A stretch of 64,000 bases of DNA from an uncultured Pseudobdellovibrionaceae bacterium (GCA_964603655.1 CAZRVZ010000045.1:790-64789), one strand, 5' to 3'; positions 12,699-57,913 are shown, numbered from the stretch's first letter. Translations and numbers: made by a program. The notes: generated by a model from the letters alone, not told the origin.

Positions 12699-14231
12699 TT
12701 ACGCTGGGGGAAAAATGCCGGTAGCCTTGCAGGTATTTCGGTACAGAATTCCGCCAAAGCCTCGCACGTAATAAGGCGATTCCCATCCAAAAATTTTGAA
12801 CCGCTGCACGCTTCGATGATCAGCCACTAGCTCATAACAACTGGGTGTCCAGTAGCACATACCGCTTCGCGGCAGAGCCTCCGCCCGCTTCGAGAAGACC
12901 TGAAAGGTTTGCGATTCGCTAATCCAGGCATAGTCGTAATGGGTGTGAACGGACCGGCAGACAAAATCCAAATTGTCCCCGGCCCCAGTCGGAACCGAAA
13001 AAAAACTATCGGCACCGATCACCAATCGCGCTCCTCTATCCGTATATGGTTTTAGCAGAACTCGAACTGCGGAAAGCCCCTGACTGTCCACTCGCGTAAT
13101 ACCGTCAAAACACAGCTTCCCCTCGCGACCCAGCATCAACGAAATACTGGCCACCAGCCCACAGATCATTAACAGTGCGGTTAGTTTCGAGCGAACCAAG
13201 ATTATTTTGGATAGGAGAACAATCATTAAAAGGCAGCAGCTAAACCATAAATATAACGGTTCAATCGAAAACACTATTATAGAAAGAGCCGCACAAACTA
13301 TAGCGCAAATTAATAACTCCATCTGATGACTCACCTTCACCGCGTACCACCAGGCATTGAGTCCAATGAGTATGCCCAGACACAAAAAAAACGGCGCCCC
13401 CATCATCACCGACTGTTTCAAGTGAAATAGAAAAGACGCCACCCCACTGGTCCCCATTCGTGCATGTTCCGACCGATTGGCATACGGAAGTGCATTATAT
13501 TTAACGCCAATCAAAAAGCGTTCCAGCGCCGTGGGATCAACCCAAAGAACCGGTGCAATCACCAGTCCAAATACCCCGAGCGATACCAATCCAATAACTA
13601 CCAGCCTCCTCGGGTTTCGCCGTATCCACCAGAAAACGTGTAACACCGCCGCAAATAGACCGGCGGTCGGGGAGACGGCCGCCGCCAATCCCAAAAGTAC
13701 TCCCCCCAAGACCGCCCCCGATAGCCAACCGCCGCGCTCCAAAACTTCCGTTACGTAAAGACTCGTTAAAGCAAGGACAAACCCCATTTCATCAGGGCGG
13801 TCCTCATTGTTGGGAAGCCAGGTAGAAATCCATAGAAATAAAAAAACTGCGGACAACTTGGTTGAGTTTTCAAATGTCGATTTGCCCACTAATCGGCTGA
13901 TCCAGAGCAAAATGACAAGAGCCCGGGCTAATCGCCATAAACTATCAAACAAAACCGAGGTACCATAGTGGTTACCGAAACACTTCACCCAAACGCCGTA
14001 AATAGTCGGAAAAAGAGGCGGGTAGAAGGCGTAAACTTCACGGGTGTCGACCGCAGAATTGGGCATGTTGACGCTAGTGAGTGTGCCGCGCGTCGCCAAT
14101 TCTACCCCGGGTAACTTGAATTGAAAAATATCGGGTCCCGGAAACCGGGTTTCAAAATAGATTATAAAACCCTGTGCGACGCACCACGCTAGAAGAAAGC
14201 CGATACACAGGATTGTCGTTCTGTTACGCAT
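12699..14231 (-). CDS. polytopic membrane protein, putative GT-C-type glycosyltransferase-like
   Basis: 510 aa with about 12 TM helices and a soluble C-terminal domain. Its architecture resembles the ArnT/PMT/DUF2029-like families. No decisive motif. Confidence 0.35.
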   Translation of the reverse strand: MRNRTTILCIGFLLAWCVAQGFIIYFETRFPGPDIFQFKLPGVELATRGTLTSVNMPNSAVDTREVYAFYPPLFPTIYGVWVKCFGNHYGTSVLFDSLWRLARALVILLWISRLVGKSTFENSTKLSAVFLFLWISTWLPNNEDRPDEMGFVLALTSLYVTEVLERGGWLSGAVLGGVLLGLAAAVSPTAGLFAAVLHVFWWIRRNPRRLVVIGLVSLGVFGLVIAPVLWVDPTALERFLIGVKYNALPYANRSEHARMGTSGVASFLFHLKQSVMMGAPFFLCLGILIGLNAWWYAVKVSHQMELLICAIVCAALSIIVFSIEPLYLWFSCCLLMIVLLSKIILVRSKLTALLMICGLVASISLMLGREGKLCFDGITRVDSQGLSAVRVLLKPYTDRGARLVIGADSFFSVPTGAGDNLDFVCRSVHTHYDYAWISESQTFQVFSKRAEALPRSGMCYWTPSCYELVADHRSVQRFKIFGWESPYYVRGFGGILYRNTCKATGIFPPA

Positions 14232-20915: not shown

Positions 20916-21293
20916 ATGGAAGATGATGAATTAAGGTTACTCCGGGTATATAAGGACCGCCTCAAAGACCGACGCCAACTGCGCTTCAGACGCAAGTTCA
21001 GGGATGATATCCCCGAACACCTTTCCAGAATAATCAAACAGTTTTTCCGGCAAACACCGGAAAGCGCCCAGCAGATGAGCCATTCGCAGATCCTAATCGC
21101 CTGGCCACGTATCGTGGGTGAAGCCATCGCCCGCCATTCATCCGCCAGGCGGATTCAAGGAGAAAGGCTTTTCGTCCACGTGCTAGATCCCCTCTGGCGA
21201 CAGGAACTGGCGTTTCAAAAAAGCACTCTTCTAAAGCGCTTGCGCGATGAATTTCCCCAGGTTCGCATTCGGGATATTTTTTTTACAGCATAA
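20916..21293 (+). CDS. DUF721/DciA-like protein
   Basis: ILIAWPRIVGEAIARHSSARRIQGERLFVHVLDPLWRQELAFQKSTLLKRL matches the DUF721 (DciA) core. Confidence 0.55.
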   Translation: MEDDELRLLRVYKDRLKDRRQLRFRRKFRDDIPEHLSRIIKQFFRQTPESAQQMSHSQILIAWPRIVGEAIARHSSARRIQGERLFVHVLDPLWRQELAFQKSTLLKRLRDEFPQVRIRDIFFTA

Positions 21294-21764: not shown

Positions 21765-23051
21765 TCATAAAACTCTCAGGGCCTGCGCGGAAATGTTCCG
21801 ACGCCCCATTGTTAAAACACTTTCCTTCTTTTTTTGAAAAATGTGTCCGGCCATTCGCTCAACTCCGTCTGACGTCACCCGGTCGACAGCATCAATCACC
21901 TCGCCGACGCCCAAGTACCTGCCAAAAATCAATTGATTGCGACCCAGAGACTCCTGCCTGCTATCCATAAACTCCGAGGACAGAAGAATCGATCCACGAA
22001 TTTGCCCCTTGACGCGATCCAAGTCCTTTTCTGCAATCGCTTGAGTTCTGAGACGTTCCAACTCCCGTGCGACTATATTTAGATATGACTTCACCGACTT
22101 GGGTTCCAGCGCTGCATAAATGGAAAGTACCCCGCTCTCGGTAAACGGCATCAGTTCTGCCTCAACGGAATAGGCCAAACCTTTCTTTTCCCTTACCTCC
22201 TGAAAAAGTCGACTACCCATTCCACCGCCGAGGTAGACGCAGAGAACGAGAGCATCGTAACGATCCTCGTCCCTGAGGCCCAGAGCTTCGTAACCAATCA
22301 GCAGGTGTTGCTGCTCGATATCAGCGACTACGCTCCGCCTTGCGGCGCGAAACCTCGACGGCAATCGTGCTCCTGGAAATGTACGCTGTCCCGACCTGTC
22401 CTCACCCAAATGACGAAGCGCGAAACTCTCTAGACTCTTCAAATCATAATTTCCAGCGATGGCCAATACCATCTTTTCCGGACAATAGTTGTCCGAGTGA
22501 AACTGGGCCAATTTAGACAACTTAATTTTTGAGATGGTTTTTTTGGACCCAATCACCGGTTGACCGAGTGGCTCCCCTTTCCAAACCATCGAGGCAAAGA
22601 GATCAAAGACCCGCTCGTCAGGTGCATCCTCAAGCATTGCAAGTTCCTGTAACAACACCCGGCGCTCCCGATCGAAATCCGTCTTTTCAAATGCAGGACT
22701 CAGTGCCAGATCAGCCAGAACCTCGACCGCGAGTTCCAAATCATCCTTCAGAACCGTAGCGTGAAAACAGGTGAACTCTCGGTCCGTAAATGCATTCAGG
22801 TCCCCTCCACGGGACTCCAAAACGGTCGCGATCTCCTCAGCTGTTCGCCTCTTGGTCCCCTTAAAAACCATGTGTTCGATGAAATGGCTGGCGCCATTTT
22901 CGTTCGGGTCCTCGTACGAACTCCCCAGCCGAACCCACAGTCCTACAGAAACGCTGCGTGCGTAAGAGTGCCGTTCAGCAACAACCCGCAATCCGTTATC
23001 CAAACTAAAATGGTGATATTCCCCGAATTGATAACGTTTATTCTTCGTCAT
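21765..23051 (-). CDS. M16-family zinc peptidase (insulinase/PqqL-like)
   Basis: Inverted zinc motif HFIEHMVFKGT. N-terminus MTKNKRYQFGEYHHFSLDNGLRVV. The start ATG is embedded in the pnp stop (GATGACGAAGAATAA). The longer listed 711-aa ORF is a read-through of the pnp repeat region. Confidence 0.7.
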   Translation of the reverse strand: MTKNKRYQFGEYHHFSLDNGLRVVAERHSYARSVSVGLWVRLGSSYEDPNENGASHFIEHMVFKGTKRRTAEEIATVLESRGGDLNAFTDREFTCFHATVLKDDLELAVEVLADLALSPAFEKTDFDRERRVLLQELAMLEDAPDERVFDLFASMVWKGEPLGQPVIGSKKTISKIKLSKLAQFHSDNYCPEKMVLAIAGNYDLKSLESFALRHLGEDRSGQRTFPGARLPSRFRAARRSVVADIEQQHLLIGYEALGLRDEDRYDALVLCVYLGGGMGSRLFQEVREKKGLAYSVEAELMPFTESGVLSIYAALEPKSVKSYLNIVARELERLRTQAIAEKDLDRVKGQIRGSILLSSEFMDSRQESLGRNQLIFGRYLGVGEVIDAVDRVTSDGVERMAGHIFQKKKESVLTMGRRNISAQALRVL

Positions 23052-26046
23052 CACGTTGGTAACGGGGCGGAGCGTAGGGCGCGTCATCCTCGTTCCATTG
23101 TGGCGAACGCCCGCCTCTATCGGCAGCGCCTCGATCAGCACCACCTCTATCGGCAGCGCCTCGATCAGCACCACCTCTATCGGCACCGCCTCGATCAGCA
23201 CCACCTCTATCGGCACCGCCTCTATCGGCACCGCCTCTATCGGCAGCGCCTCGATCAGCACCGCCTCTATCGGCAGCGCCTCGATCAGCACCACCCCTAT
23301 CGGCAGCGCCTCTATCAGCACCCCCTCTATCAGCACCCCCTCTATCGGCACCACCTCGACCAAATCTATCGTTTGCGTTGCGATCCCGAGTCTGGCCTTC
23401 TCGCGGTCGATAGTCGCGCGGCTGATAATCCCCTCGATCCGGACGATCTCGCCTCGGTCCGCGATTTCCACGGTCGCTTCCGCCTCGGTCTTGATAATTG
23501 CGGTCGTTGAAGTTCGGTTCAGTACCGAAACGGTCCTCTCCACCACGTCCTGTACCTGTACCTCTATACGGTGCGGGCCCCCGTTCACCCCAAGCTGCTC
23601 GACCGGGACCACCGCGTCCCTCACTACGCGGACCGGCATCCCGATGTCCGCCACCACCTTCGCGATACCCACCTCGTCCTGCACCCTCGCGAGGACCATC
23701 AGACCGTGGTCCACTACTCGGCCGTCGGGAATCCCGACGCGGTCCACCGTCTTGTCGGTCTCTATTAGAAATTCGGCGAGCCTCTCGCAAAGGTCGGTCC
23801 TCGGGATCCCGAACGAGAGAGCTGTTATCCATTTCGGTTTCCGAATCTGCAAAATAATCGCCCGGTGCCGTCGGCTTAATTTCGGTGGATGCCGCAGCAT
23901 TGGGGTCTGCTTGTGTAGGAGTCGGCACAGCCGGTGCCATTGCAGCTCCCTCCCTAAGGAGAGCCTTGCGGGAAAGCCTCATCTTGCCACTGGACTCCAC
24001 CTCAAGACACTTCACGCGAACGGTATCTCCAATTTGAACCACGTCCTCGACTCGCCTAACCCGTTGAAGGTCCAACTCGGAAATATGGCATAACCCTTCC
24101 GTTCCCGGAATAATTTCAATAAAGGCACCGAAATCAGCAATTCGCGTAACCTTACCTTCATAAATCCGACCAGCCTCCGGCTCCTCCACGATTCGCTTGA
24201 TAATTTCAATCGCCTTTTGAGCGCTCGCATCGTCGACTGAAGCGATATGAACACTCCCATCGTCCTCGATATCGATCTTAACGCCCGTCTGCTCGATGAT
24301 CCCGCGAATAACCTTTCCTCCACTGCCGATCACCTCTCGAACCTTATCCGGCTTAACCTTGATGGTGTAAATTCGAGGTGCATAGGCTGAGACACTTTCG
24401 CGCGCCTTTTCGATCACCTTACTCATCTCTCCCAGAATATGGAGACGGCCTTCGCGAGCCTGTTCGAGCGCCTGTTCCATGATGACACGGCTCACTCCAC
24501 CAATTTTCAAATCCATCTGAAATGCGGTAACTCCATCGGCGGTGCCGCATACCTTGAAATCCATATCTCCCAAATGATCCTCATCACCCAGAATGTCGGA
24601 GAGAATGGCGACCCGTTCACCTTCCTTAATGAGTCCCATAGCGACTCCCGCGACCGGTTTCGCAACCGGAACGCCCGCATCCATCAGCGCCATTGAACCA
24701 CTGCAAACTGTCGCCATTGACGACGATCCATTGGACTCAAGCACTTCGGAGACGATTCTCACCGTGTACGGAAATTGCTCTTTGGGCGGCATGATGAAGG
24801 TCAACGCTCGTTCGGCCAAAAAACCGTGGCCGATTTCTCGTCTTCCCGGACCCCGAAGCGGTCTGGCCTCTCCCACGGAGAAAGGAGGAAAGTTGTAATG
24901 GAGCATGAACGCCTTTTGATAAATCCCAGTAATTGAATCGATTTTTTGTTCGTCATCGGCGGTTCCCAATGTCACCGTTGACAACACTTGAGTCTCACCG
25001 CGGGTAAACAGCGCCGAACCATGCACTCGCGGCAGCAGGCCGGTCTCGCAACTGATCGATCGGATCTCATTGTAAGGGCGACCATCGATGCGAGTCTTGG
25101 TGTTTAACGTGTGCTCGCGTGCATAAGTCGCCTTGAGTTCCTCAATGTAAATGGGCACCATTTTATTACGCGTTTCGTCCGCATCCGTTTTTGGCTCCTC
25201 AATTAGGAATTTTTCTTTCGCATTCGACTTAACCTTATCTAGCGCCTCATAACGGGCCAGTTTTTCACGAATCGCAAACGCAGACTTAAAGCCCGACAAA
25301 AGGGCCTTGCGCATATCGGTCTTAAGGGCCTCGTCACGCTTAGGGTGCTCATAGGCCCGTTTTTCCCGTCCAACCTTTGCCTTCAACTCGTCCTGCATGT
25401 CAAAAATGGCCTGCATCTGCTCATGTGCAAAATAGATGGCATCATTAAGAAGTTTTTCATTTACCTCTTTTGAACTCCCTTCGACCATCACGATTCCCGA
25501 TCGCCCTCCAGAGACCAGGAGATCCAAGGAACTATTGGCCTGGTCGGCTGGCGAAAAATTCATCACCATTTCGCCATTGATATGCCCAACACGTCCGCAA
25601 GCAATAGGCCCGGCCCAGGGTATATCGGAGATATGAAGCGCACAGGATGCACCAATGGATGCTAAAAGATCCGGCTCATTCACTCCGTCATTTGACAACA
25701 CAGTTGCAACGACGTTGGTCTCAAACATGTAATCTTCGGGAAACAAGGGCCGAATGGGTCGGTCGATGATTCGAGCGGAGAGAGTTGCTCGGTCCGATGG
25801 TCTCGCTTCCCTCTTAAAAAACCCGCCTGGAATGCGCCCGGCCGAATAATATTTTTCCTGGTAATCCACCGTCAACGGGAAGAATTCCTGATTTTCCTTT
25901 AATTTCTTACTCGATACCACGGTGACCAAGACCATCGTGTCGCCGTAACGACAAAGAACGCTTGCATCCGTCTGTTTAGCCATTTTTCCGGTTTGTAATG
26001 TTAAAGTCCGGCCACTGATATTTGCACTAACTTCTACGACTGACAT
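23038..26046 (-). CDS. pnp: polynucleotide phosphorylase with about 290-aa C-terminal Arg/Gly/Asp-rich repeat tail
   Basis: Complete PNPase core: two RNase PH domains, KH, and S1 ending in GKMRLSRKALL. An in-frame 1002-aa ORF continues through RG-rich low complexity and 16 GGADR/GAADR pentapeptides. Confidence 0.9.
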   Translation of the reverse strand: MSVVEVSANISGRTLTLQTGKMAKQTDASVLCRYGDTMVLVTVVSSKKLKENQEFFPLTVDYQEKYYSAGRIPGGFFKREARPSDRATLSARIIDRPIRPLFPEDYMFETNVVATVLSNDGVNEPDLLASIGASCALHISDIPWAGPIACGRVGHINGEMVMNFSPADQANSSLDLLVSGGRSGIVMVEGSSKEVNEKLLNDAIYFAHEQMQAIFDMQDELKAKVGREKRAYEHPKRDEALKTDMRKALLSGFKSAFAIREKLARYEALDKVKSNAKEKFLIEEPKTDADETRNKMVPIYIEELKATYAREHTLNTKTRIDGRPYNEIRSISCETGLLPRVHGSALFTRGETQVLSTVTLGTADDEQKIDSITGIYQKAFMLHYNFPPFSVGEARPLRGPGRREIGHGFLAERALTFIMPPKEQFPYTVRIVSEVLESNGSSSMATVCSGSMALMDAGVPVAKPVAGVAMGLIKEGERVAILSDILGDEDHLGDMDFKVCGTADGVTAFQMDLKIGGVSRVIMEQALEQAREGRLHILGEMSKVIEKARESVSAYAPRIYTIKVKPDKVREVIGSGGKVIRGIIEQTGVKIDIEDDGSVHIASVDDASAQKAIEIIKRIVEEPEAGRIYEGKVTRIADFGAFIEIIPGTEGLCHISELDLQRVRRVEDVVQIGDTVRVKCLEVESSGKMRLSRKALLREGAAMAPAVPTPTQADPNAAASTEIKPTAPGDYFADSETEMDNSSLVRDPEDRPLREARRISNRDRQDGGPRRDSRRPSSGPRSDGPREGAGRGGYREGGGGHRDAGPRSEGRGGPGRAAWGERGPAPYRGTGTGRGGEDRFGTEPNFNDRNYQDRGGSDRGNRGPRRDRPDRGDYQPRDYRPREGQTRDRNANDRFGRGGADRGGADRGGADRGAADRGGADRGAADRGGADRGAADRGGADRGGADRGGADRGGADRGGADRGAADRGGADRGAADRGGRSPQWNEDDAPYAPPRYQRDDEE
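23103..23350. repeat. 15-bp tandem repeat array (about 16 units) inside the pnp 3' end
   Basis: Units of ggcagcgcctcgatc / agcaccacctctatc repeat head to tail. All three frames stay open, which produces the overlapping spurious ORFs. Confidence 0.85.
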
Positions 26047-26074: not shown

Positions 26075-26341
26075 TTACTTGCGGATACTAAGACGTTCAA
26101 TCAACGACTGGTAACGACCTGAGTCTAATTCCTTCAGATAATCCAACAGACTTCGCCTTCGGCCTACCATCTTGAGCAGTCCTCTTCGAGAATGGTGATC
26201 TTTAATGTGGGATTTAAAGTGCGGGGTCAATTCATTAATCTTTTGCGTCAGTAAGGCAACTTGAATCTCCACAGAACCCGTATCTCGTTCATGGACGCGA
26301 TAGCCGCTGATGACTTCGTTCTTTTTCTCCTTCGTAATCAA
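26075..26341 (-). CDS. rpsO: 30S ribosomal protein S15
   Basis: 88 aa, ...[48 protein letters not shown]. Confidence 0.9.
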
Positions 26342-35124: not shown

Positions 35125-36732
35125 TTACTTTTTCGGAACGAAATTAAACCCTTTGCTCTCCCCGTTGCTCTCCCCGTTGTTCTCCCCGTTGCTCTCCCCG
35201 TTGCTCTCATAGATCTCATCAGTCTCTTGAGGCTGCTGCGACTGAGGCTCCGCCACCCGAGACTCAGCAACGGGCAATTGACCAAAAAGCTGCCCCCCGC
35301 TGACTACCAAATCGGGAATAATCTCCTCTTCCCAGCGCTCCAGAGGAATACGGTCGAGTCCAGGGTTTTCCTTGCGACTAAGACTAACCATCTTCGTGAA
35401 GAAACGCTCCAAAAACTCGTCAGACAACAAATCTTTTCCACGCTCCCTGAGTCCGAGCGATTTTCCTTCGCTCTCGAGCTCCAGGAGACTTAATAGCGCA
35501 ACCCCAGACACTATTTGGAGACTGGCCTGCTGGAGTCCGTTCTGAAATGTCTGCCCGTTCTTTTCCATGGCAAATGGACACTGGTAAAATCTCAGGCGGG
35601 GGTGGCTTCTCCATGCGGCGATAAACATGGATAAAAGCGGTTTTGGAAGTAGATCGGCCATCGTTGAAATATAAACTTCGCGGTGTTTCTGGCGAACGGC
35701 TTCACCCTGTTCGAGACGGGTTTCCTGAGCCAGCTGGGCATCGTAATACCGTGAAATCGCGATACTCGTGACCGGAATGGCAAGGAGTAATGCCGGCAAT
35801 GAGGCTCGTCGCCAATATTTACCGGTACGGGTGATCGAACGTGCCGCAGAGCTTTTGACGTTTCGAATTGCACTTAGAGTCAATTCGAGGTGCAGCGCGC
35901 GCGCCCCGGGCGTGGACCCGATTTTGATCGTCTGTCCCTCACCAACAGGAAGGTAGTCAACAATTCCACCGGCATCCTTAAAAATGGCATCCGTACTTTT
36001 CGGGTGCGGAATCTGGCGCCGACTCGCGGCCTTGACTATCTCCCCGACGCGCTGGGTTTCCATGGCGCTTCGCAGATTCTCATAAGCGTTCGAATGAAGC
36101 TCCATCGCTCTTTCAATCGTAGGGCGACCACTCGTTGCGTCCCCGGGTGAATCGACACCCGAAGCGATATCCGCTCCAAGCTTTAGGGCCTTACCTCTCA
36201 CCGACGAACTGATACGGTCCGATTGCAGCCATACATCCAACTCATCTTTCGACAGCTGCGTCAGCGCCGCGGCAAGTCCCTTCTCTGCCCGGATCCAGTC
36301 CTTATAAAGATCCACAAATTTCGTTGGTTTTGAACCCGCCTCTCCGACGCTTTTAAAATCGAAGGAATTTGTCGCTAAATCTTTCAACGTCGCGATCTCA
36401 TGATTCCATACCGCGACATTCATGCGCATCCGGCGCCACGCAATTGCGTACACAATCATCTCCAGTGCGCCCGCGGACACTCCCATGTAAAAGGACTGCG
36501 GGTCTTTCCACGCAAACTGCAAAAACTCCGTAGGAATGCTCGTCCATTTCGATTTGTTATCGGACACCACGGCCCGTCTCTCGGCGATTTTATTGCGTTC
36601 CATCTCAATGGACTGGTGCAATCGATTCAGTTCGGTAAGCAGGCTCTCGCTCTGCTGTGACGAAGTGTCTTCACACACCGATAGAGACCCCAGACAACCC
36701 ACAAGAACCCAAGCTGTCAGTCGACTGCGCAT
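35125..36732 (-). CDS. secreted hypothetical protein with internal hydrophobic segment and C-terminal (SNGE)n repeats
   Basis: Signal peptide MRSRLTAWVLVGCLGSLSV. Hydrophobic stretch ASLPALLLAIPVTSIAI. C-terminus ESNGESNGENNGESNGESKG. Confidence 0.5.
   Translation of the reverse strand: MRSRLTAWVLVGCLGSLSVCEDTSSQQSESLLTELNRLHQSIEMERNKIAERRAVVSDNKSKWTSIPTEFLQFAWKDPQSFYMGVSAGALEMIVYAIAWRRMRMNVAVWNHEIATLKDLATNSFDFKSVGEAGSKPTKFVDLYKDWIRAEKGLAAALTQLSKDELDVWLQSDRISSSVRGKALKLGADIASGVDSPGDATSGRPTIERAMELHSNAYENLRSAMETQRVGEIVKAASRRQIPHPKSTDAIFKDAGGIVDYLPVGEGQTIKIGSTPGARALHLELTLSAIRNVKSSAARSITRTGKYWRRASLPALLLAIPVTSIAISRYYDAQLAQETRLEQGEAVRQKHREVYISTMADLLPKPLLSMFIAAWRSHPRLRFYQCPFAMEKNGQTFQNGLQQASLQIVSGVALLSLLELESEGKSLGLRERGKDLLSDEFLERFFTKMVSLSRKENPGLDRIPLERWEEEIIPDLVVSGGQLFGQLPVAESRVAEPQSQQPQETDEIYESNGESNGENNGESNGESKGFNFVPKK
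35153..35208. repeat. 12-bp tandem repeat (about 4.7 copies, ttgctctccccg)
   Basis: Direct repeats seen in the sequence. They encode the SNGE repeats at the 3' end of the 535-aa gene. Confidence 0.8.
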
Positions 36733-36870: not shown

Positions 36871-39800
36871 ATGTACCGAAACCCTATCATTTCAATGTTC
36901 ATTTTCGTCTGGGTATTGTTTTTCTGGGCACTACCGAGCCTAGCCGCCGACTCGCCTGTCGCGGAGCAGATTGCCCGCATGGAATCGCAGGTCGCAGAGT
37001 TGCAAAGGCGAATGCCGGTCACGGAGTCCGAGCGCAAGACCATAACCGGTTTGGCCGAAACGGGAATCACGCAATCGGCGAACCTGCAGGCGCAACTCGT
37101 GAAAGAGTGGGACGGGTTTCTGATTCGGCTCCGAGTTCCGGATAATGAGCGGACCGAGTTTAATAAACTGTTTAGCTCCGACGCGGCAGATTCAGGCCAT
37201 CTGGCAGCCTTTCCGGGTACCATCACGCTCCTCAGAGCCCATGTACTTCAAGGAAATCAAGCGCCGATGCAGATGGGACTCGAGCTGATGGTCGCTGGTC
37301 TTCGCATGACCCATTACCGGCTCGTTTGTTTTCACGCCCTGCAATCCGCTACTGCGAGTCCACCCATCCCGCTCGCTGATTTCGATAAGCTACTTCTTTC
37401 GCATTATAGCCAGCTCGCTCTTCTTTTCTCGCTGTACCCGGAATTCCCGGAAATTCTTATGGGTGCTCTCAGAAATAAAACAAACCAGCTGGACTTTTCA
37501 AAACTCATTCCCCTTCTAAATATTTTTTCTACTGGCCCACCCATGACAACCCTGCCGGCGGAATTCGCTGGGCCTGGTAAATTCAGTGCGACTAAGTTGG
37601 CCAACCTACTTGGTATTGGTGAAGGTACTCTGAAGGGCGTGCTCAATGCCGTCGCCACCGCTGAAATAACCACCCAGGAGTTGGAGCACTATCACCTCAC
37701 CCATTATCCACAGTCGGCAAAGCAGGAGGTTCTTGAACACCTGGCGGTCGTGCTCAGGAATGTTCCAGGGCTTCGTGAATGTGTGAATCTCACGAAGTCA
37801 TTTTCAGATAGCCAATCCAAGCCCACAAGCTACAGCGATTTCGAAGGAGCGCCCTGTGATTTCAAGGCTTACGAGGGTGCACTTCGGCGCTATGTTGGTT
37901 TTTACCGCGCCAATCAGGGGACAACGCTCCTTCCAACACTCGAGGATTTCTTTAAGACTTCAGCCGATAATTTTCGAACTCAGAGCGAGATGCGTGACGC
38001 GCTTGGGTCCCATATTTTAACCGACGCAACTGATGACTTTAAAAAACAATGGCCAGCCATCGAAGATCGAATCTTTCAAAACCCCGATACCATTGAACGC
38101 TGGAAAACAACCGACGCTCTTACGCTCACACGGGATCTTAAGGATGTACTATCCAATTCTGGCATTCAGATACAGGAAGGCTTAGACATCAATTACTCCG
38201 AAAACCTCAACCAGGCCGAACATCTCGTTTCCAACCTTAAAAACATGGACACCAACGCCCGCACTTCAGCCGGTGAAATTGTGTCGATAGACTCCCAAAC
38301 GCCCTGCGAGACATTTTTGAGAAAAGACCGATCCGATAATCGGGTCATCCAGACCGTTCGCCAAGCCGAGAGCTACCCGAGCGCCGAGGAGTCTAGCCAC
38401 GGCTTTGCTCGGCTGGTCCGACTTTTTGAGGTAAAGCTTTCTAATCTAGCGACTATTCAAAACCCAGAGACGGTTCACGTCACACTGGCCGGACTCCTAG
38501 GGCAGACCATTCGCGCGCAATTACTGACCAATTACGTTCAGACACAACTCCTCTTGGGAGCTCGATTAAACCGGGACCTGAAACTTCCGCGATCGCCATT
38601 TATTCAATTGATGGAAAATCGATACGGGTACTTGAGCGCCGAGGCGATTATGGCTCAGGCAGCTGACGTTGGAGCCACGGTCATAGGTGATCCCTTTCGC
38701 AAAGACTTTCGCACCAAATTATTGAGCGCGGCAAACCAAATACAAAAACTCGACGCTCTGATCACAAGGCTTAATACCCGCGCTGAGGCTGCGCGCATGG
38801 CCCCGCCCGGACTTTCAAAGATCCTAAATATTCCACCTGAGTTTACAGGTGAGACGGATAAGAGTCAGGCGAGCCAGATGAATCAGGCCCTCATCGACCT
38901 AGCAGGTTATGTTCGGTGGGATTTTGTCGAACGCCACAGCCCCGGTAAAACCATCCATGCACTCCGAAAAATCAATTCTGCCACGCGCCTATCGATTGAT
39001 CAGTTCAAGGAACAGATCGATTGGTACTCGGGCATTGAAAACGGGCGTGTCACTCGCCCCCCTCGTTACACCGATTTTATAGGTCGAGAAGAGCTGGACA
39101 TACTTCAAAAACACCCCGTGCTCCAGGGCATGCTCATCAATCATGTCGACGCTATCATGGATGGCCCCAGAGATTATGCCGTCTGGACACGCGACCTACT
39201 CATTTCCAGGTACCCAATGCTCACTCATGTCGATGCCTCTTCGGGCCGTAAAACCGACCTCTGGAGAAACTATCGGGACCAGGATTTTGATAAAACCCTA
39301 ACAAGCCATCTGACCATGATTCAAAAGACGCTGACCCTCTTTCTCGCTGAGACGGATCTGGATACGTTTTTTAATTCGGCGATTCATAACGGAGCCCTTC
39401 TGGATTATGTGCTCCGCAGGCACCCCGATCAGAAACTGGCTAGTTGCACTGAACAACGCAGGGTCGAGGCAATTCGACTGCGCAATGAACGCATCGTGAC
39501 TGGCCTTAGTTCGCTCGCGCTAAGTTTAAGTTTAATTCCCGAGGTGGGTCCAGCGGCCGCGTTTATTCCCGGTGTTATCGCCGTAGGAATTACCGCCTCG
39601 GAAAACTCGAAGGCCAGAATGGCCGCAGCGCAGTCCCATGCCTACCAAATCGCTTCACTCGCTCAGCGATCCGATTCGGACCGCGCGCTGGACCCGGTCT
39701 ATCAGCGAAAACTGGAGGATCAGTATTTGGTTGCTCAGGTGGAGCATGTGCTCAGTATCGTAGGACTTGCCAGCGCCGGCACCATCCGCTTCTCCCGAAT

Positions 39801-40605
39801 GGCGAAGTTGTTAGGGTCTTTCGAACGTGCCATGCAGTTCAACCGGCTAAGGACAGTTCGTTTCTTTCGGGGCTGGAGGGCTACAAGCGCCGCACCATGG
39901 GTAAAGTCACTCGCGAGTTCAGGCACCAGGCTGCCCGCATTGCGCTTCGGATTAAGAGTTTTCGACATCACAAAACGATCAGGCCAAACCGCCCGTGACT
40001 TTTTCTTTTACCCCTTTCACCGTCTGGGGTTGACCGCACCCTTCGGCTCCAACTGGCGACTGCTTTCTCAATTGAATCCGGGATTATCTCGTACAAAGCG
40101 GGTTTCGATTCGACTCTGGCATTCGGTGGAGGACGGATCTCATATCATCGGTAATCTGCCACTCAGTCCCATAGGCCTACAATTTGGATCGGGTACCGCA
40201 GGGCTGTATCTGCAAGGTTATACTCTCTACGAACTCGGCAACTGGGGCTTTCAGACGTGGAGGGCCTACCAAGCCGCCGCCCGAGAGCTGGTCGTTGCAC
40301 GACTGCACGAAACGCTCCACTCAGAGCAGCCCAATTCTGAGTATATCGATCTTATCGATGCGGTTTACTCGGGCTCACTCACGGTCGAGGAGGCGGCTCG
40401 AGTAATCGAAACCAGCAGAAGTTTTGGGTTTGAAGAGGCGTTGACCGATGTGGTGAAGTCAAATGGCGCCATTGAAGCTCGAAACTCACTAGATTCCGCC
40501 AGAAAGGCTCTAGAATCACAACCAAAGTCGCCCGATCCAATTCACGAATATGCAAAGGCTCGTGCGCTCACACAGATGAGAAAAATCCTCGACCAAATCC
40601 ACTAG
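36871..40605 (+). CDS. large secreted hypothetical protein (1244 aa) with bilobed hydrophobic segment
   Basis: Signal peptide MYRNPIISMFIFVWVLFFWALPSLAADS. No recognisable catalytic domain. Hydrophobic pair LALSLSLIPEVGPAAAFIPGVIAVGITA near aa 870. Isolated HETLH near the C-terminus. Confidence 0.6.
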   Translation: MYRNPIISMFIFVWVLFFWALPSLAADSPVAEQIARMESQVAELQRRMPVTESERKTITGLAETGITQSANLQAQLVKEWDGFLIRLRVPDNERTEFNKLFSSDAADSGHLAAFPGTITLLRAHVLQGNQAPMQMGLELMVAGLRMTHYRLVCFHALQSATASPPIPLADFDKLLLSHYSQLALLFSLYPEFPEILMGALRNKTNQLDFSKLIPLLNIFSTGPPMTTLPAEFAGPGKFSATKLANLLGIGEGTLKGVLNAVATAEITTQELEHYHLTHYPQSAKQEVLEHLAVVLRNVPGLRECVNLTKSFSDSQSKPTSYSDFEGAPCDFKAYEGALRRYVGFYRANQGTTLLPTLEDFFKTSADNFRTQSEMRDALGSHILTDATDDFKKQWPAIEDRIFQNPDTIERWKTTDALTLTRDLKDVLSNSGIQIQEGLDINYSENLNQAEHLVSNLKNMDTNARTSAGEIVSIDSQTPCETFLRKDRSDNRVIQTVRQAESYPSAEESSHGFARLVRLFEVKLSNLATIQNPETVHVTLAGLLGQTIRAQLLTNYVQTQLLLGARLNRDLKLPRSPFIQLMENRYGYLSAEAIMAQAADVGATVIGDPFRKDFRTKLLSAANQIQKLDALITRLNTRAEAARMAPPGLSKILNIPPEFTGETDKSQASQMNQALIDLAGYVRWDFVERHSPGKTIHALRKINSATRLSIDQFKEQIDWYSGIENGRVTRPPRYTDFIGREELDILQKHPVLQGMLINHVDAIMDGPRDYAVWTRDLLISRYPMLTHVDASSGRKTDLWRNYRDQDFDKTLTSHLTMIQKTLTLFLAETDLDTFFNSAIHNGALLDYVLRRHPDQKLASCTEQRRVEAIRLRNERIVTGLSSLALSLSLIPEVGPAAAFIPGVIAVGITASENSKARMAAAQSHAYQIASLAQRSDSDRALDPVYQRKLEDQYLVAQVEHVLSIVGLASAGTIRFSRMAKLLGSFERAMQFNRLRTVRFFRGWRATSAAPWVKSLASSGTRLPALRFGLRVFDITKRSGQTARDFFFYPFHRLGLTAPFGSNWRLLSQLNPGLSRTKRVSIRLWHSVEDGSHIIGNLPLSPIGLQFGSGTAGLYLQGYTLYELGNWGFQTWRAYQAAARELVVARLHETLHSEQPNSEYIDLIDAVYSGSLTVEEAARVIETSRSFGFEEALTDVVKSNGAIEARNSLDSARKALESQPKSPDPIHEYAKARALTQMRKILDQIH

Positions 40606-42861: not shown

Positions 42862-45800
42862 TTGATTCGCGTGCTTTGCACCTATCTGAGCGTCTTTTTG
42901 GCGATGCCTCCAAGCGTCTGGGCCGAACCATTCGATCAGATGACGCAGAAGGCACACATTGCGCAGTTGGAGAGCAAAGCGCCCAGCTGGAACGACGAAC
43001 GCCTCAAGGTATATCAGGCATTTCTGCTCGCATCCTGGAAGCTATCGGCTCTTTTGAGAGACCCACGCCTGGGAGCGATTGCGCTCATCCGGGAATCCGA
43101 AGATCGCGTCCTATTGTCAGCCTACAAAAATTGCCCAAGCCCGTGGAAAGAGGCGCCCGAATCATCTGAGATAAATTCAACCGTCACATCCCTCATTACA
43201 AATGTTCAAACGGCTCTGAATGCCCTATTCGAAAATCATGTTCTAGAAATTGGGTCCGTAGAGATCGAAACGGCTCCGGAAGGTCCACTCACGACACCGA
43301 CCGTGGAGTCGGATTTAAACGGAGCCATCTGCATTCCAGCCACTTTGATTTCTCATTCCTCAACTCACGATTCGCTGGACTCGCTTATCGCCTCAACCGA
43401 ATCAGCAATCCAGAGTGTTCAGAGGCCAATACACACACTGCTCCTGTCTAAAGTTACTCATGGTGGCATCGTAACCAATTTGGAAGTCCGTCGCTGGATA
43501 TCCTGGCTTGTGGGACTGCGGGAACTCTCGGCGCACACGATACATTTGCAGCCCAATTTGCCATCCAACGGTGGCGTTCAGGCGGCTCGTTTTTCAAAAA
43601 AGGTGGGGGACAAACTTTCCCTCGCGTATCGATCGGCAAAAAACACGCTGCTCACGCTGGGTGCTGCTAAAAATGACTTACCTCGATTTGAACCGTGTGT
43701 CGGTGAAAATCAAACGTCCGATTTCTTGTGCCTAATCGTGCCACCGCCTTCCGCCTTAGAGCAGGCTCGTGACAGGATCTTTCACCAGGCTCGGGAAAGG
43801 GCATACGACCACGGCAAAGGACTGGAGGCCATGCGTAGGTATAGCCTCATTATGAAGGGCGTTCCGGAACGCGCAGTCATCAGCCTTGCGCTCGGAAATG
43901 AAAACCCGGAGCTCAAACTTCCGGCATGCATGGGTTCGTCCGATGGGGCACTCATGCAGGATGTCTACCGCGAAAGCATTCAAACGGCCGCTAAATCGAG
44001 AGCAACCAATCAATTCCTCCAAGCGCTCGACCGAGTCAGCGCAAAGTATCGCGATAATTCCCTAGCACCACCAATCCCCAAAACGGACGAGATTTACACT
44101 GAAGGGCACACAATCGCGCTGTCCTTATTTATGACGGCTTTACAAAACCAACGTGAGGCTTCGGGTAGAGTGGCGAGCCATCTCGATACCTACAACTTTC
44201 GCGATTTTTTTCACAGCCAGCGGTTCTTAGATCAATTTCCCGACCATCTGAGTGGCAAACTAAAACTCACCCTCGCCTTTGTGAATGATGAGCTTTCTGA
44301 ACTAGCACCAGAACGGAGAACGGCCTTTCTCACTGGGCACATAACTGACACGATCCGTTATGTGCTGCACGACTCCCTGCTTAATTTTATTTTGGTAGTT
44401 GCAAGCGACCTCGGCATCGATGAGCAAGCAATAGCTGCAGAGTGGGAGCGCACGTTTGGTGCCCAATGGCAGTCCATTCTGGAGGATCCGCTGCTTCGGG
44501 CCGATATCTCTCAAATGGCGGAGACCGTGACCGCCCACATTAATACTAGTACGACGGCCCAACCGACCAACACGTTAGAGTGGTCGAATCAGAATCTTAG
44601 GACCTATGTGGACGCCCTTTCCGAGCAAGCGGTGCGGGCGGCCCACGCCGATGAAACCTACCGGTTCATGGAGAGTTTGTCTGAGTGGAAAAATGGCGGG
44701 GAGTCGGTCCTTTCCGGACCGCAGACCTATTATTGGAACCGCAGCGGCATTCACTTTTCACCGGTAGAGCTCAAACCCGAGCGCCCCAGCGATTATCGTC
44801 ACCTAAAGGAGCCCCTTAAATCCTTGGCCGAGGCTCACCGTAAAGCGCTGATCGACCGCCTTCAGTCGCAGGGATTTAACAATGAATTTGTACGGGCCCG
44901 ATTCGCTCTGCCCACGACGGATGCGCTAGCCGATCGTATCCTGGCCTATTTTGACCAGCTCGTCGCAGCGGACCCCAAGAAGTTTGAGGCCGACAGAATG
45001 CAGCAGAGGCAACAGGCATTTCAGCCATTACTAACCTGGCTCAACTCACCCCACGCGCGGGCTCAGTATGATGCCGCTGCCGGGCGGCTCTCTACCGAGA
45101 TTTTGGAGGCCGATTTGCGTCCATTCCTGGAGCAGGTTCCGAGCAGAGAATCGGCGCAATTCACAGCTTGGGAAGCTCAACTAAAGGCGGTTTTAAAGAC
45201 GATGTCGGACACCAAGACCTTTCGAACCCCTCCCGATACAGAAACCATTCTTAAGGTGAACAGTCGGTCCGACAACCGACTCCGCGAGTCGATTTCCAAT
45301 CTGCTCCGGGAAGTGACAGAACGAGGCTATTTTTCGGACCTGGAAACTGGGCTCCAAAAGTGCCTAAACGAACCCGAGAAATGCACGAGTCTACTAAAAT
45401 CAGTGCAGACTATTTTAACCAATCCCGCCCTAGAGCAATTGTACGAATGGCGGGTGATATCCCATTCGCTCAATCACGGTATTAATTTTCTGAATTACTT
45501 CGGGGCTGATGGAGACGTTTATGCCCCCCCACCCGTTGCGTCGCCTGTGCCAGAACTCGTGATATCGCTACGCGCAAAACTGAACGACATTTGGTTCGGT
45601 TTTCCTGGCTCGCCACCGAAGCATCCATCGGAGCATCCTTTGGGTCTGGCCAAGGAAGTTGATGCACTTTTAGTCGCCCTTTCCAAATCAGCACACGTGA
45701 ACCGGACTGGGGAATTGGATGGCTTTCACCAAAGTCTACTGGCGGACTTCCAACCGACAATTTCCAAAACCATTTCCGAAATGCACGCATTTCATCGTTG

Positions 45801-48800
45801 GCACGGTCATATTAAATCTTTGCTTCCGATGCTGACCGTTCCTGTCGATCGATTAACTCCGGCACTTTGGGAACAGGCAAGAACACTTATCCTAAACGAG
45901 CTTTCATACCTGCAGGGCGTTCGATTGCCGTTTTTAAACGCCCCCTCGGATTTGGACTCGTCACGAGCGCTGCTTCTCGATTTCTCGACCTATCGTAGTC
46001 GTCTTAATCATCTAGCCCGTATCGTGCTCAATCAGGGAACCGATCCGGCCGAGATTATTCACCAGGCCGAGGACGCACTCAGAGGTCTTCGCGCCATTAC
46101 CAAACCCACCGAGATGGTTCAACGCAGGATACGAATTCTGGGATCCCAGTTATCGGACGCCAAAAAGGACTTGTCAGCGTATTCAGAACTCCGGGGACTC
46201 GTTCGTCACTATATCCCCGCTCTCGCCGAGTCCAAGCAGGCTCTAACAATGGATATGGGCTCGCTCGGGCTCACCGAACGTTGGAATGCCTACTTCGAGG
46301 ATCAACTCCTCGACAAAAATGCTCGCGTCACGCTCAAGGATCTCAATTCATTGATCGCCAAATCGCAGTTCAATCAGCCAGTGGAACCACTTGACCCTCT
46401 GAATAAATCGACTATCGAAACCATTCTCAAGGATTCCATCAGTTATTTTACAAAGCTTCAGGCAGACCCGCTCACCGAGTCTTTTTTTCACCGTGAAGCC
46501 ATTCGTCATCGCATCCAAGGCCTCCCCGATTACACTTTAAGCCACGTACCTGGTAATATCGCTGGGCCTGCACTTTTTATGGCCGGGCTCAAGGTCGTCC
46601 ACGCGCGACTCATGCCGTATCTGATGCCTCGCGGATCGACGAATGAGGAGCTTTATCAGAAATTCGTTCGCGCCTCGGTTTCGACAGGGTCAGCGACTCA
46701 GTTAGATAATCTGATCGCCATCCTGCCCAGCCCCCGAGAGGTAACGACTTCGTTACTGTCTGAGGCGCAAGAAATCTTACGCGCTCTTAACGACAAAAAT
46801 GAATCGGCACAAACCAACTTCAGGGCATTTGCTCGCTCGCTCACCGATCTGAGTGCTTCGCGGCTGAGTACTCCGGAGCTGAGTACTCCGGAGCTGAGTG
46901 CTCCGGAGCTGAGTACTTCGGGGTTTGCTCCGTTCCTGGATTCTGAAGGAACCGAGGTTTCCATCAGCTCGACCGGACCCCACTCGGAGTTGGCGTTTCC
47001 TAAGGGTATAGATACTGAACTGTCGTTTCTTAATCGGGTCATTTCAAACCTATCAGTGAGTCATCGTTCGTCGCTACTGAGTCGGGCGGGGGTGGAAACT
47101 CCAGACACCAAATCTGCTGCAGAGCTACTCAATCGACTCAGTCCAAACGACAGGTCCCGCGTATACCGACACCTCTTGACCGAGGTGGAACGCAGTATTT
47201 CAACCCACGCGAGCATTTCTACAAACCCGGTTGCCAAGGCGCTATTTCCGCAGGGGGACACGCAAGAGACACTCAGCCCGACCTGGAACGCAGATTTGGA
47301 GCGGGCCATAGCCTTCTATGAAAAAAAGTCATCCCTACTACGCAAAGGGCAAACCCCAGCGTTGACTCGACTCATCGCCTTGACCCTTTTTGAGTACCTT
47401 GCACCCATTGGCTTTCGCTTCTCGGAAAAACAACTGGTCCAGAATGCTAAGATTCCAATCGATGTTAGTCGCGATCAATTGAGTCAAGCGCCGACTGCTG
47501 TTTTAAATCATTTTATTCAGGATGTCCGTTACCGCTACTATCAGGAGGTCGCTAGCAAGTCGGGGTTTTCAGCTTTTTCAAAAAGCACATCTATAGATGA
47601 TACGAATGACATTACGAAAATAGGTCCTGAAACCGCGACACTTCGTTTACTCTTGCGTCGCACTGTCATTCCACTGTCATATGCTCTCGCTGTTATTTCG
47701 GCTGAAAGTGAAGCTCTCTTACCCTTTTGGGCAAAGTGGAAACCCGGATCCACTAGTCACCTGGCGAAAGATTTTACAGAGTGGTTTTCTAAACTTGCAT
47801 CCTTAGATTCGCTCCGTTCGTCGTGGGGTCAACCCAATTCACGCGGCATTTCGAGTCGACACCCCAGTCTCTCGAGCTTTTCGAAGTCCAAAGAATATCG
47901 CCATCTCATGGTTCATCTGGTTTCGCTCGACGCCAATCAAACTGTTTCCGATGGGACGGGAAGTTATCCGGCACTTTTGGCTCAGCTCAATTGGAGCATC
48001 AACCGGAGTGGACGTACGTTCGATAGGACCGCGCGACCCATTCCAGCACCCCCGACCTTCAGAGAGCTAGACTACCTGGTCCGTCATCTCATCGACGTTA
48101 TTGGAATCGATCTCAAACGGTTCGATTCCTGGAGGCAGCTACTCGATACCCATCAAGGTGCTCCACCGGAATTGTGGGCACTGGCCTCGCGCAGTTTGCG
48201 CGATTCGATCTCGGAAGTTGGACAGGGTGGGTTTCTCGGCGTGAAGATTGCAGCACCACAGTCAGAAAGTCCACACACGCTTTTTGGAAACCATGGTTAT
48301 ATTCCGTATCCTGTCGTCAATGCGTCTGAGAGAGAACTATTTTGTGCCACTGACGACCTGACTGATTGGCTGGGTCGAGCCGAACAGCGGCTGCACCCCC
48401 CACACACCCAGTGGCTCAGATTTGAACGGGACGCATCCATATCCCAAAAGTCCCGGCTGGATAATGAAGTGCGGGGCCAAAAAGAGTACAGCCTCTATCA
48501 TGAGATTGCCCAGATAGAATCGGATGACATGGTGGGTCTTCAGGATACTATCGATGGAAACCCTACAATCAGAAATCGATTTCAATCGCGCTGGGATCGC
48601 TGGAATGCACTACCCTTTGGAACCGCAGTCTTGCCGGCAGTCGAACTCAACTCTTTGCAAGCACAGCTGGCCAAGGACAATATTTCCTCTAAGCAATCGG
48701 AACTCGAACGCATCTTCCGAGTACGCGAAGCATTGGTCGATTTTCGCCGCACGTTGAATGAAATCAATCTACAAGAAGGCGTCAACTGGTGGAGAGAGTC

Positions 48801-55611: not shown

Positions 55612-56868
55612 TTAACGTTTGAGTTGATTGGCATCGGAGCGCATGATCTTAATTCTAAACCAGGTACCGTCCTCTAGGAACTTGGTTTCGAGTACCTTCG
55701 ATATCTCATAGATACGCGACTGCAACTCAGAGTCACGATAGGGAACCACAAACTCCATTTCGATCATATCGCGCTCAAAAAAACCGTAAATCGCGTCCCG
55801 CAGGCGTTTCATATCCTCCGGCGAAAAAGATGAAACGGCGAGACTGTCGATATACTTTCGCTCAACTATTTTAGGAAGAAAAATGTCCTTAACCTTATCG
55901 GCCTTATTGAACACCAGAAATCCAGGCTTTTCTCCGGCACCAATTTCAGCTAGTACCTCTTCCGTCACCGCCATCTGTTCTTTAAAACATGACGCAGAGA
56001 GATCGACGACATGTAGCAGAATATCGGCGTCGATCACCTCGGCAAGAGTTGATTTAAATGAGGCGACTAGGGAATGCGGCAATTTCTTGATAAAACCGAC
56101 GGTATCGCTTAGCAAAATGGGCGGACGCGTTTTCGGATCAATAACTCTAACGGTCGAATCCAGTGTCGCAAATAATCTGTCGTCGACGTAAACCTCTCCG
56201 ACCGTCAATCGATTCATGAGAGTCGATTTTCCGGCGTTGGTGTAGCCAACGATAGCGACTCTGAGAAACCTGTCGCGGTGGTGGCGCTGAACCGCTCTTT
56301 GCTCCGAGAGCGTTTCCAGTTCTCCCTTCAGTCTGGCGATTCTGGAGCGGACCTGGCGCCGATCGAGCTCAATTTGACGCTCCCCCACGCCACGCAGTCC
56401 GATTCCGCCCCGTTGCCGTTCCAGATGGGTCCAGCGGCGGGACAAATGCGTGGATAGATATTCCAAGGTAGCCATTTCGACCTGCGTTTTAGCCTCCCTG
56501 GTCCTCGCATGCTTGGAAAATATGTCCAGAATAATGCCGGTGCGATCGATAACTCGGCATTCGGTTCCGTTCTCGAAGTTCTTCTGCTGAGTTCCGCTGA
56601 GCTCACCGTCAAAAACCACAAGATTAGCATTGTTCTGGGTAATGGCTTCCAGGATCTCAGCAACTTTACCCGAGCCGACATAGGTCGAGGGGTCTGGTCG
56701 ATTCCGCTTTTGGATAAACCGCGCGATAACCTTTCCACCGACCGTCTGTACCAGGCGCTCGAGCTCCTCCAGACTGTTAGCTACCTCATCATCGGTCTGT
56801 TCAGGGAATTGAACGGCGACAGCGATGGCGCGCTCCTCTTCGACATTTTGACGATATCTTTGCTTCAT
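55612..56868 (-). CDS. hflX: GTPase HflX
   Basis: HflX N-domain plus G domain (AIVGYTNAGKSTLMNRLT, DTVGF, NKAD). Likely start is MKQRYRQN at 56868, not the upstream in-frame ATG at 56955. Confidence 0.85.
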   Translation of the reverse strand: MKQRYRQNVEEERAIAVAVQFPEQTDDEVANSLEELERLVQTVGGKVIARFIQKRNRPDPSTYVGSGKVAEILEAITQNNANLVVFDGELSGTQQKNFENGTECRVIDRTGIILDIFSKHARTREAKTQVEMATLEYLSTHLSRRWTHLERQRGGIGLRGVGERQIELDRRQVRSRIARLKGELETLSEQRAVQRHHRDRFLRVAIVGYTNAGKSTLMNRLTVGEVYVDDRLFATLDSTVRVIDPKTRPPILLSDTVGFIKKLPHSLVASFKSTLAEVIDADILLHVVDLSASCFKEQMAVTEEVLAEIGAGEKPGFLVFNKADKVKDIFLPKIVERKYIDSLAVSSFSPEDMKRLRDAIYGFFERDMIEMEFVVPYRDSELQSRIYEISKVLETKFLEDGTWFRIKIMRSDANQLKR

Positions 56869-56871
56869 TAA

Positions 56872-57053
56872 GGGCTCGCCCAAAAATAACTTTACATTTT
56901 GGCGCGCAGATTGGGGGCAGATTTGGACGAGCCGATTGAACGAAACGGGAAGCATACCTCAGGCGGTATGTTAAGCGTTTCGTGAAAGAGGGTCGTTCAA
57001 AGATGGCTCCAAGATGCGATGTCCAAAATGTAAAGTTATTCTTGGGCTAGCCC
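56872..57053. repeat. 182-bp imperfect palindromic element with 31-bp terminal inverted repeats (MITE-like or structured sRNA locus)
   Basis: gggctcgcccaaaaataactttacattttgg (56872-56902) pairs with its reverse complement at 57023-57053, with 2 mismatches. Nested inner IRs acgaaacg/cgtttcgt and catacc/ggtatg share one symmetry centre at 56961.5. Confidence 0.6.
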
Positions 57054-57491: not shown

Positions 57492-57913
57492 GGCACCTTG
57501 TTGGGTTGCGGGTGTTTGAGGCGAACAGAATCTAATACTGCGTTGACGAATTTCGGTGTATCCACCTCGCCGAAACTTTTGGAAAGCTCTATCATTTCAT
57601 TAATGGTAACCGCGGCTGGTATATCATCGCAATACAGAATCTCAAAGACTCCAAGTCTTAAGATATTGCGATCGACTCGGGCCATTCTATCCACTCTCCA
57701 CCCAGTCGCTGCGCCATTGATAATTTCATCGACGGCCTTTACGTTCTCAACAACACAGGCGATCAGCCGTTCCACAAAGCTCGTCTCAGCCCCGTGCGTG
57801 TCGAAGTTAAGCCTAAAATATTCAAGGCCGGTCTGAACCGTCAGCTCCTGACTATCAAGTTGGTAAAGAACCTGCAGTACCTGCGAACGACTTGTGTGGC
57901 GAGTGCTTTTCAC
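57488..57913 (-). CDS. nusB: transcription antitermination factor NusB
   Basis: [20 protein letters not shown]...[29 protein letters not shown]. Confidence 0.8.

Follow-up and report, generated by a model that had tools for sequence, protein, structure and literature searches.

In the current picture of RNA decay in bacteria, the machinery is organised by helicases or by the endonucleases RNase E and RNase Y through their disordered regions, and polynucleotide phosphorylase (PNPase) is a folded client. A pnp gene in a 64,000-nucleotide stretch of DNA (GCA_964603655.1, CAZRVZ010000045.1:790-64789; hereafter the window) raises a question about this arrangement. Its product does not end a few residues past the S1 domain, which is typical of PNPases though not strictly defining, and instead the frame runs on for 305 aa. 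What is this tail, and does it belong to the enzyme? Our analysis favours, with a probability of roughly 55%, that it constitutes an intrinsically disordered, arginine-enriched mixed-charge domain, a putative module for multivalent binding of RNA or partners or for self-association. According to this reading, the tail would have been acquired once in an uncultured Bdellovibrionota clade, where selection may keep its bulk properties rather than its sequence. The source organism is itself an uncultured member of the Bdellovibrionota; the nearest genome loci lie in metagenome-assembled genomes (MAGs) labelled Pseudobdellovibrionaceae or Bdellovibrionota.

A PNPase with a long C-terminal tail

The pnp gene occupies positions 23038..26046 on the minus strand as a single uninterrupted open reading frame (ORF) of 1002 codons followed by a TAA stop (23038-23040), and was assigned by Pfam and NCBIfam. 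Its product matches PF01138 (RNase_PH) twice, PF03725 (RNase_PH_C), PF03726 (PNPase helical), PF00013 (KH) and PF00575 (S1), in the canonical order from aa 10 to aa 694, where S1 ends. The NCBIfam equivalog TIGR03591 covers aa 10-695 with 1009.3 bits against a cut-off of 525, and NF008805 reaches 982.7 bits against a cut-off of 471. Pfam, matches to solved structures and an AlphaFold2 model delimit a canonical core (aa 1-697; 23956..26046, minus strand), which terminates in ...GKMRLSRKALL (aa 687-697), is 55-76% identical to other PNPases and contains arginine and lysine in about equal amounts (6.7% and 6.5%). It shares the full domain set of the canonical enzymes of Escherichia coli and Caulobacter (PDB 3CDI, 4AM3, 7OGK), and an ORF read as rpsO lies upstream of the gene here. 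PNPases are homotrimers in which the KH/S1 domains form the RNA entry. By these sequence criteria the product is a bona fide PNPase, predicted to act as a homotrimer with phosphorolytic 3'-5' exoribonuclease activity.

Whereas canonical PNPases stop within ~5-20 residues of S1, the window PNPase adds 305 residues that are predicted to be disordered. A sequence-only reading of this DNA had proposed that the frame continues past the canonical end near GKMRLSRKALL, as the single 1002-aa ORF with its S1 end at aa 694 bears out. It had also put the tail at about 290 aa, starting from 23910; a long tail is indeed present, but it comprises about 305 aa and begins at ~23955, some 45 nt beyond that upper coordinate. 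The tail is dominated by glycine (63 residues, 21%), arginine (58, 19%) and aspartate (41, 13%), followed by alanine (40) and proline (25), with a single lysine (0.3%). Its 116 charged residues sum to a net charge of +2, which corresponds to a fraction of charged residues of 0.38 and a net charge per residue (NCPR) of +0.01. It holds 16 RGG and 26 RG motifs, of which 5 RGG and 10 RG lie outside a tandem array described below. RGG boxes are expected to carry net positive charge for electrostatic RNA binding. The tail possesses the clustered RGG/RG motifs of such a box, but not the net positive charge. It rather displays two features of arginine-rich mixed-charge domains (R-MCDs), namely many charges at near-zero net charge and arginine as the cation (R 58 : K 1). 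The idea of an Arg/Gly-rich tail of the RNA-binding type therefore stands as far as richness in R, G and D and predicted disorder are concerned, whereas a simple cationic arm is at odds with a net charge of +2 over 116 charges and with a neutrality that extends across the clade.

Along the minus strand, the tail opens with an acidic linker rich in P, A, T, E and D (aa 698-754; 23785..23955), which has a net charge of about -6 as judged from 20-aa charge windows. It is overlapped by a conserved island, IKPTxPxDYFAD...DPEDRPxREARRISxRDR (aa 723-764; 23755..23880), defined by columns that are invariant with the two closest relatives. The middle (aa 755-897; 23356..23784) is of low complexity, rich in R, G, D and P and, according to composition and window charges, mildly basic, with 5 RGG and 10 DR outside the array. 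Embedded in it is a second island, EPNFNDRNYQD (aa 843-853; 23488..23520), with invariant E, N, NDR and YQD columns in alignment A2 and the consensus ExN[FY]NDRxYQD. The array follows (aa 898-977), and the protein closes with the region GGRSPQWNEDDAPYAPPRYQRDDEE (aa 978-1002; 23041..23115), an aromatic-plus-acidic tip. Here W, PRY and RDD[DE]E are invariant among the three closest tails, forming a C-terminal island Wx[ED][ED]...PRYxRDD[DE]E; the window protein ends in ...PRYQRDDEE and its closest relatives in ...PRYQRDDDE and ...PRYHRDDDE. Alignment of the window tail with the two closest tails thus shows conserved islands embedded in variable low complexity.

The array (23116-23355, minus strand) consists of 16 G[GA]ADR units with a net charge of 0, as determined by Tandem Repeats Finder (TRF) and a table of the units. 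Sixteen GGADR pentapeptides in a perfect 15-bp tandem array had been claimed; the number of units is correct, but only 11 are GGADR and 5 are GAADR, and the DNA is not perfect, as it comprises 7 distinct 15-mers with 5 variable sites and 81% matches at period 15, rising to 92% at period 30 (TRF score 390). The array far exceeds chance. Of the five nucleotide sites that vary, four leave the amino acid unchanged when read in the pnp frame, which supports this frame as coding. Codon usage within the array is skewed, with AGA accounting for 62% of the arginine and GAT for 100% of the aspartate codons, and such a narrow codon set indicates that one or two founder units were amplified recently. Neither of the two closest relatives (P0002 and P0003) has the array, which in the window protein is inserted after ...NDRF(G/N)R and ahead of the C-terminal island. 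Other lineages have separate arrays of their own: ENRGPDRN in about 9 copies (P0013), GGDRGPDR (P0026) and a 12-mer (P0018). The GGADR array is a recent, lineage-specific and net-neutral expansion of the slippage type and not a conserved functional core; with one R and one D per unit, it adds length and leaves the net charge unchanged. Repeat-length polymorphism, which the sequence-only reading had considered likely, is plausible, because exact direct repeats of up to 42 bp exist. No conspecific sequence was present in the collections searched, where the best match of a metagenome scan reached 76% core identity and the 90% cluster has one member.

We modelled the monomer with AlphaFold2 using a 61-sequence alignment. 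The core was predicted with a per-residue confidence (pLDDT) of ~90, while residues 700-1002 scored 26-38 and showed no secondary structure, and are accordingly predicted to be disordered. Solved PNPases align only to query positions 4-713, so that no PDB counterpart exists past aa 713, and the tail has no Pfam match. A tail-only search of a 5.8-billion protein set gave two matches, both unrelated low-complexity proteins; this search also missed the known relatives and is uninformative. Tail-only phmmer against 1.84 billion representatives yielded 1714 matches, the best 150 of which cover essentially the array only (nearly always query positions ~170-300). The 40 top matches that we inspected are unrelated period-5 repeats, for example KAAAD, GGADx and ADLRG pentapeptide proteins.

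Tails across an uncultured Bdellovibrionota clade

We compared the tail with those of the 36 closest PNPases, taken from independent NCBI, ENA, JGI and Logan assemblies that include both MAGs and metagenomes. Their cores are 60-75% identical to that of the window protein (alignment A1), and all 36 carry a tail beyond S1, with lengths between 54 and 382 aa. Bdellovibrionales PNPases of the next tier, at 57-59% identity, end 5-13 aa past S1. When the cores were placed in a neighbour-joining tree, the tail-bearing sequences grouped in a single clade, and no short-tailed PNPase falls within it. The sequence-only reading had proposed an alignment of orthologs as a check on tail conservation, and had named absence of the tail from all close relatives, combined with poor read support, as evidence against it; the alignment recovered a tail in each of them. 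Nor is there a stop or frameshift just after S1, the other outcome that it had named as fatal, as judged by the homologous tails, codon usage and synonymous array variation.

The primary sequence of the tails is barely alignable between subclades. Their charged fraction ranges from 0.26 to 0.60, and their net charge stays between -6 and +6 with 24-162 charges per tail, so that |NCPR| is <=0.03 in 34 of the 36. The variance of net/sqrt(N) is 0.10, compared to 1 for random signs (chi-square lower-tail P 6.5e-13, uncorrected for phylogeny). R/(R+K) is at least 0.90 in every tail, and kappa values of 0.05-0.20 indicate that charges are well mixed. When each tail is divided into deciles, a common charge profile appears across the clade: acidity in deciles 1-2 (mean NCPR -0.07 and -0.16) gives way to a mildly basic stretch over deciles 3-8 and returns in the final two.

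Short motifs were assessed against 2000 composition-preserving shuffles, none of which attained any of the observed counts. The motif [DE][DENS]x[GF]NR occurs in 29 tails, compared to an expected 0.8. In 28 tails (5.4 in shuffles) the C-terminal tip is acidic, three or more of the last 6 residues being D/E, and 33 tails (14.6 in shuffles) have an aromatic residue among their last 12 aa. The combination of conserved short motifs with a disordered region, which characterises scaffolds of the RNase E type, is thus found in the tail by AlphaFold2, shuffles and conserved islands. Most tips read [RP][YF]xRDD[DE][DE], with the aromatic residue preceding the acidic run. The acidic tips of SSB and Hfq compete with nucleic acid and recruit partners. 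With these proteins the window PNPase shares an architecture in which an OB-fold, here the RNA-binding S1, leads through a disordered linker to a C-terminal tip of acidic character (...RYQRDDEE); it differs in that the usual clade tip places the aromatic residue ahead of the acidic run, and in that the tip is undocked in the AlphaFold2 model. The tails of one subclade of four relatives (P0007, P0014, P0019 and P0023) terminate in ...PDDDDGF or ...DNDGF, ends that recall the DDDIPF of SSB and are closer to it than RDD[DE][DE] is.

Arginine-rich PNPase tails are not unique to the window genome, as PNPases of Polyangia (Myxococcota), among them the cultured Sorangium cellulosum, Labilithrix luteola and Chondromyces apiculatus as well as Polyangium, carry lysine-poor tails rich in R, G, D and P after S1 (loci L009, L014, L022-L026, L040 and L043, among others, are included here). 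These tails mostly measure 45-77 aa, with 212 aa in Chondromyces, and most have a net charge of +2 to +6, that of Chondromyces being neutral. At their start stands a segment, ELLPLPEGEEGERAKERM..., that is conserved, and their last residues are basic, as in RDRR; Chondromyces apiculatus has ERPERGPRPEGGERGPRPEGF repeats. Compared to the Bdellovibrionota tails they are shorter, mostly positive and basic at the end, and neither an acidic tip nor an acidic-GNR motif was seen in them. Among the sequences compared, the Bdellovibrionota clade alone has the long, neutral, tip-bearing design.

Gene neighbourhood

Immediately upstream of pnp lies an 88-aa ORF (26075..26341, minus strand), which we read as rpsO (S15) from its size, sequence and position. 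Downstream follows a gene for an M16 (pitrilysin-type) peptidase (21765..23051, minus strand; Pfam Peptidase_M16 and M16_C). Its ATG (23049-23051) is located inside the last pnp codons, and the resulting 14-nt overlap (23038-23051) suggests that the two genes may be translationally coupled. The order truB-pnp-M16 is common to the window and the relatives' loci L001 and L004, neither of which has a pnp/M16 overlap. We also considered whether the acidic tip is kept merely because it overlaps the M16 start codon, and rejected this, as L001 and L004 retain the tip or tail in the absence of any overlap.

Further flanking ORFs were identified by Pfam as RimP, NusA, IF-2 and TruB. PNPase is the only ORF with an arginine-rich mixed-charge segment in the 64-kb window, and also in most of the relatives' neighbourhoods examined; at the high-GC locus L005, extra and probably spurious ORFs contain such segments. 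They are missing from the nearby genes for NusA and IF-2 (by Pfam) and from two ORFs that we interpret as RbfA and S15. No RNase E/G was found among the large window ORFs scanned. Rfam at gathering thresholds returned no RNA family in the whole 64 kb (1-64000), and hence none of the known leader elements of rpsO or pnp.

Several other features of the window were recorded. A homologue of the helicase loader DciA, the DnaC/DnaI antecedent, is encoded at 20916-21293 on the plus strand, between glpX and dut and opposite to the pnp operon. The hflX gene (55612-56955) has no recognisable hfq ORF directly upstream, and a 141-aa ORF (57488-57913) is a putative nusB by reading. Two very large ORFs are located on the plus strand, one of 3515 aa (42862-53409) and one of 1244 aa (36871-40605). 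The latter, as well as ORFs of 510 aa (12699-14231) and 535 aa (35125-36732), gave no Pfam match at E <= 1e-5.

What the tail may be and do

If the tail is a mixed-charge interaction module, each PNPase would display three tails beside its KH/S1 RNA-entry face, as the enzyme is homotrimeric. The R/G-rich middles might then bind RNA and acidic segments weakly and multivalently, while acidic linker and tip could compete for those arginines or for KH/S1, either inside a single molecule or across trimers. Such competition would render binding tunable and could link trimers into assemblies or condensates. The acidic ends may thereby temper the arginine-rich middle in a form of auto-inhibition, the conserved motifs could dock a putative partner, and the GGADR array would lengthen the tail at constant net charge. 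In its chemistry this module resembles the R-MCDs, as both pair R with D/E, have a net charge near zero, strongly prefer R to K, mix their charges well, vary in length and are joined to a domain that binds RNA. It differs in being bacterial and glycine-rich (21%), and the likeness is one of composition and not of homology. R/D mixed-charge domains condense in a manner that depends on length, arginine and net charge, and exchanging R for K abolishes this (Greig et al., bioRxiv 10.1101/771592). As PNPase is more active within condensates of RNase E (PMC10412687), a condensation or scaffold domain borne by PNPase itself is biologically plausible.

Several points weigh against this interpretation. 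The AlphaFold2 monomer docks no tail motif on the core, and the tip has a pLDDT of only ~26-30, which is weak negative evidence. A well-mixed electroneutral polyampholyte is expected to form an expanded coil with weak self-attraction and an RNA affinity below that of a cationic RGG box. The window protein lacks an exact [DE][DENS]x[GF]NR motif and has only the degenerate versions EDRPLREARR, SDRGNRGP and NDRFGRGG; the second half of the island at aa 723-764 occupies the place of the acidic-xGNR motif in most other tails, and its EDRPLREARR may be the equivalent of that motif by position and pattern. Our statistics ignore the relatedness of the 36 tails and count each as independent. Finally, the tail-only searches gave no similar tails on other RNA-decay proteins, only low-complexity or array matches, and with the array dominating the phmmer matches, similar tails on helicases, RNase E or Rho are not findable that way.

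Two alternatives concern whether the tail is what it seems. The true PNPase might end after S1, with the frame beyond it open by chance, by frameshift or by a collapsed repeat. Arrays do assemble poorly from short reads, and the copy number of 16 needs reads for verification. The same DNA also yields long spurious ORFs in other frames (21765-23900, minus strand, 711 aa; 23056-24093, plus strand, 345 aa; 22761-23510, plus strand, 249 aa), with peptides such as IEALPIEAV... and SIGSASISTT..., which could mislead gene callers. Having found no credible Pfam match in the two plus-strand ORFs or in the N-terminal extension of the M16 ORF (23052..23900), apart from one low-complexity match below cut-off, we rejected them as genes and regard them as arising from the repeat and from codon positions 1-2 that are GC-rich and poor in stops. 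Against an artefact stand the homologous tails with the same terminal motif in 36 independently assembled relatives and the mostly synonymous array variation in the pnp frame. Arginine codon usage in the non-repeat tail also tracks that of the core (CGA 0.31 vs 0.28, AGA 0.07 vs 0.09), and a miscounted array cannot shift the frame, because its unit is 15 bp. We therefore give this alternative next to no credence; judging from these comparisons, we consider it effectively settled for the whole tail that it represents a genuine coding extension. Nor does it seem at all likely that the array folds as a structured repeat domain such as a pentapeptide-repeat beta-helix (PF00805). The strict period of 5 and the ADLRG-type pentapeptide-repeat proteins picked up by phmmer would agree with this, but those matches reflect likeness in periodicity and composition to unrelated KAAAD/GGADx arrays. 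Moreover, there is no Pfam pentapeptide match at E <= 0.1, and AlphaFold2 gives a pLDDT of ~30 without strands. The A(D/N)LXX consensus of pentapeptide repeats requires a central hydrophobic residue, a position that is taken by arginine here.

Other alternatives accept the tail as real and disordered, and differ on its purpose. A C-terminus that permits growth might simply have accreted slippage-prone R/G/D-coding DNA, tolerated without specific function. This largely neutral expansion would account for the span of lengths and for the poor alignability between subclades, and several lineages do have their own recent arrays, that of GGADR clearly being recent. It fits badly, however, with the complete lack of tail losses in the clade, a charge neutrality far tighter than random and the nearly exclusive use of arginine in tails whose core has about as much lysine. 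Together with the block charge pattern, two motifs enriched well above composition and neighbouring genes that lack such segments, this makes neutral expansion unlikely in our view. Alternatively, as the sequence-only reading had suggested, the RNase E/G of this lineage might lack a long non-catalytic tail, and the PNPase tail might have taken over the role of scaffold or condensate driver, recruiting a helicase, RNase E or others through short motifs. The tail does resemble the non-catalytic C-terminal domain of RNase E, the degradosome scaffold and driver of BR-bodies (ribonucleoprotein bodies found in bacteria), in kind: both are long, disordered and fast-evolving, including in length, and both contain stretches rich in arginine along with microdomains or short motifs that are conserved. 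They differ in that the tail sits on an exonuclease instead of an endonuclease, with no detectable sequence relationship and no membrane-targeting helix seen. Recruitment and stimulation of PNPase by RNase E condensates (PMC10412687) and the variation of RNase E-PNPase recognition modes between lineages (PMC12489471, PMC3964918) are in line with such a transfer. No partner was identified in this analysis, the scanned window ORFs yielded no RNase E gene, and no other protein family showed a matching tail or motif in tail-only searches; a transfer of the scaffold role is accordingly a doubtful, though not far-fetched, option. Comparably tentative, and to be held with reserve, is a bolder form of the favoured mixed-charge reading, in which PNPase and not RNase E scaffolds RNA-decay assembly in the Bdellovibrionota clade. 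Three electroneutral R/D tails per trimer would here drive condensates, while partners would be recruited, or the access of RNA to KH/S1 gated, by the acidic-xGNR motif and the aromatic-acidic tip.

Sequences of this kind are already present in public databases, and the named ones are annotated plainly as PNPase. As pipelines label such proteins just PNPase, the feature stays invisible unless protein length is inspected. A literature search returned no account of a PNPase that bears a disordered tail of its own, the results being centred on RNase E. The fusion of a canonical enzyme to a lineage-specific, mixed-charge disordered domain is thus probably undescribed for PNPase.

With regard to the organisation of RNA decay, the exonuclease itself carries a clade-wide disordered domain in this group, in which net charge, arginine bias, charge blocks and motifs persist while the sequence turns over. 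The tails may therefore serve as a natural experiment that shows which properties of a disordered region selection retains in bacteria. They also offer a candidate alternative route to RNA-decay assembly, and a testable bacterial case of an arginine mixed-charge grammar that has so far been studied in eukaryotic speckle proteins. Should PNPase indeed act as the scaffold, its tail would represent an independently evolved bacterial counterpart of the eukaryotic arginine-rich mixed-charge domains, placed on an exoribonuclease.

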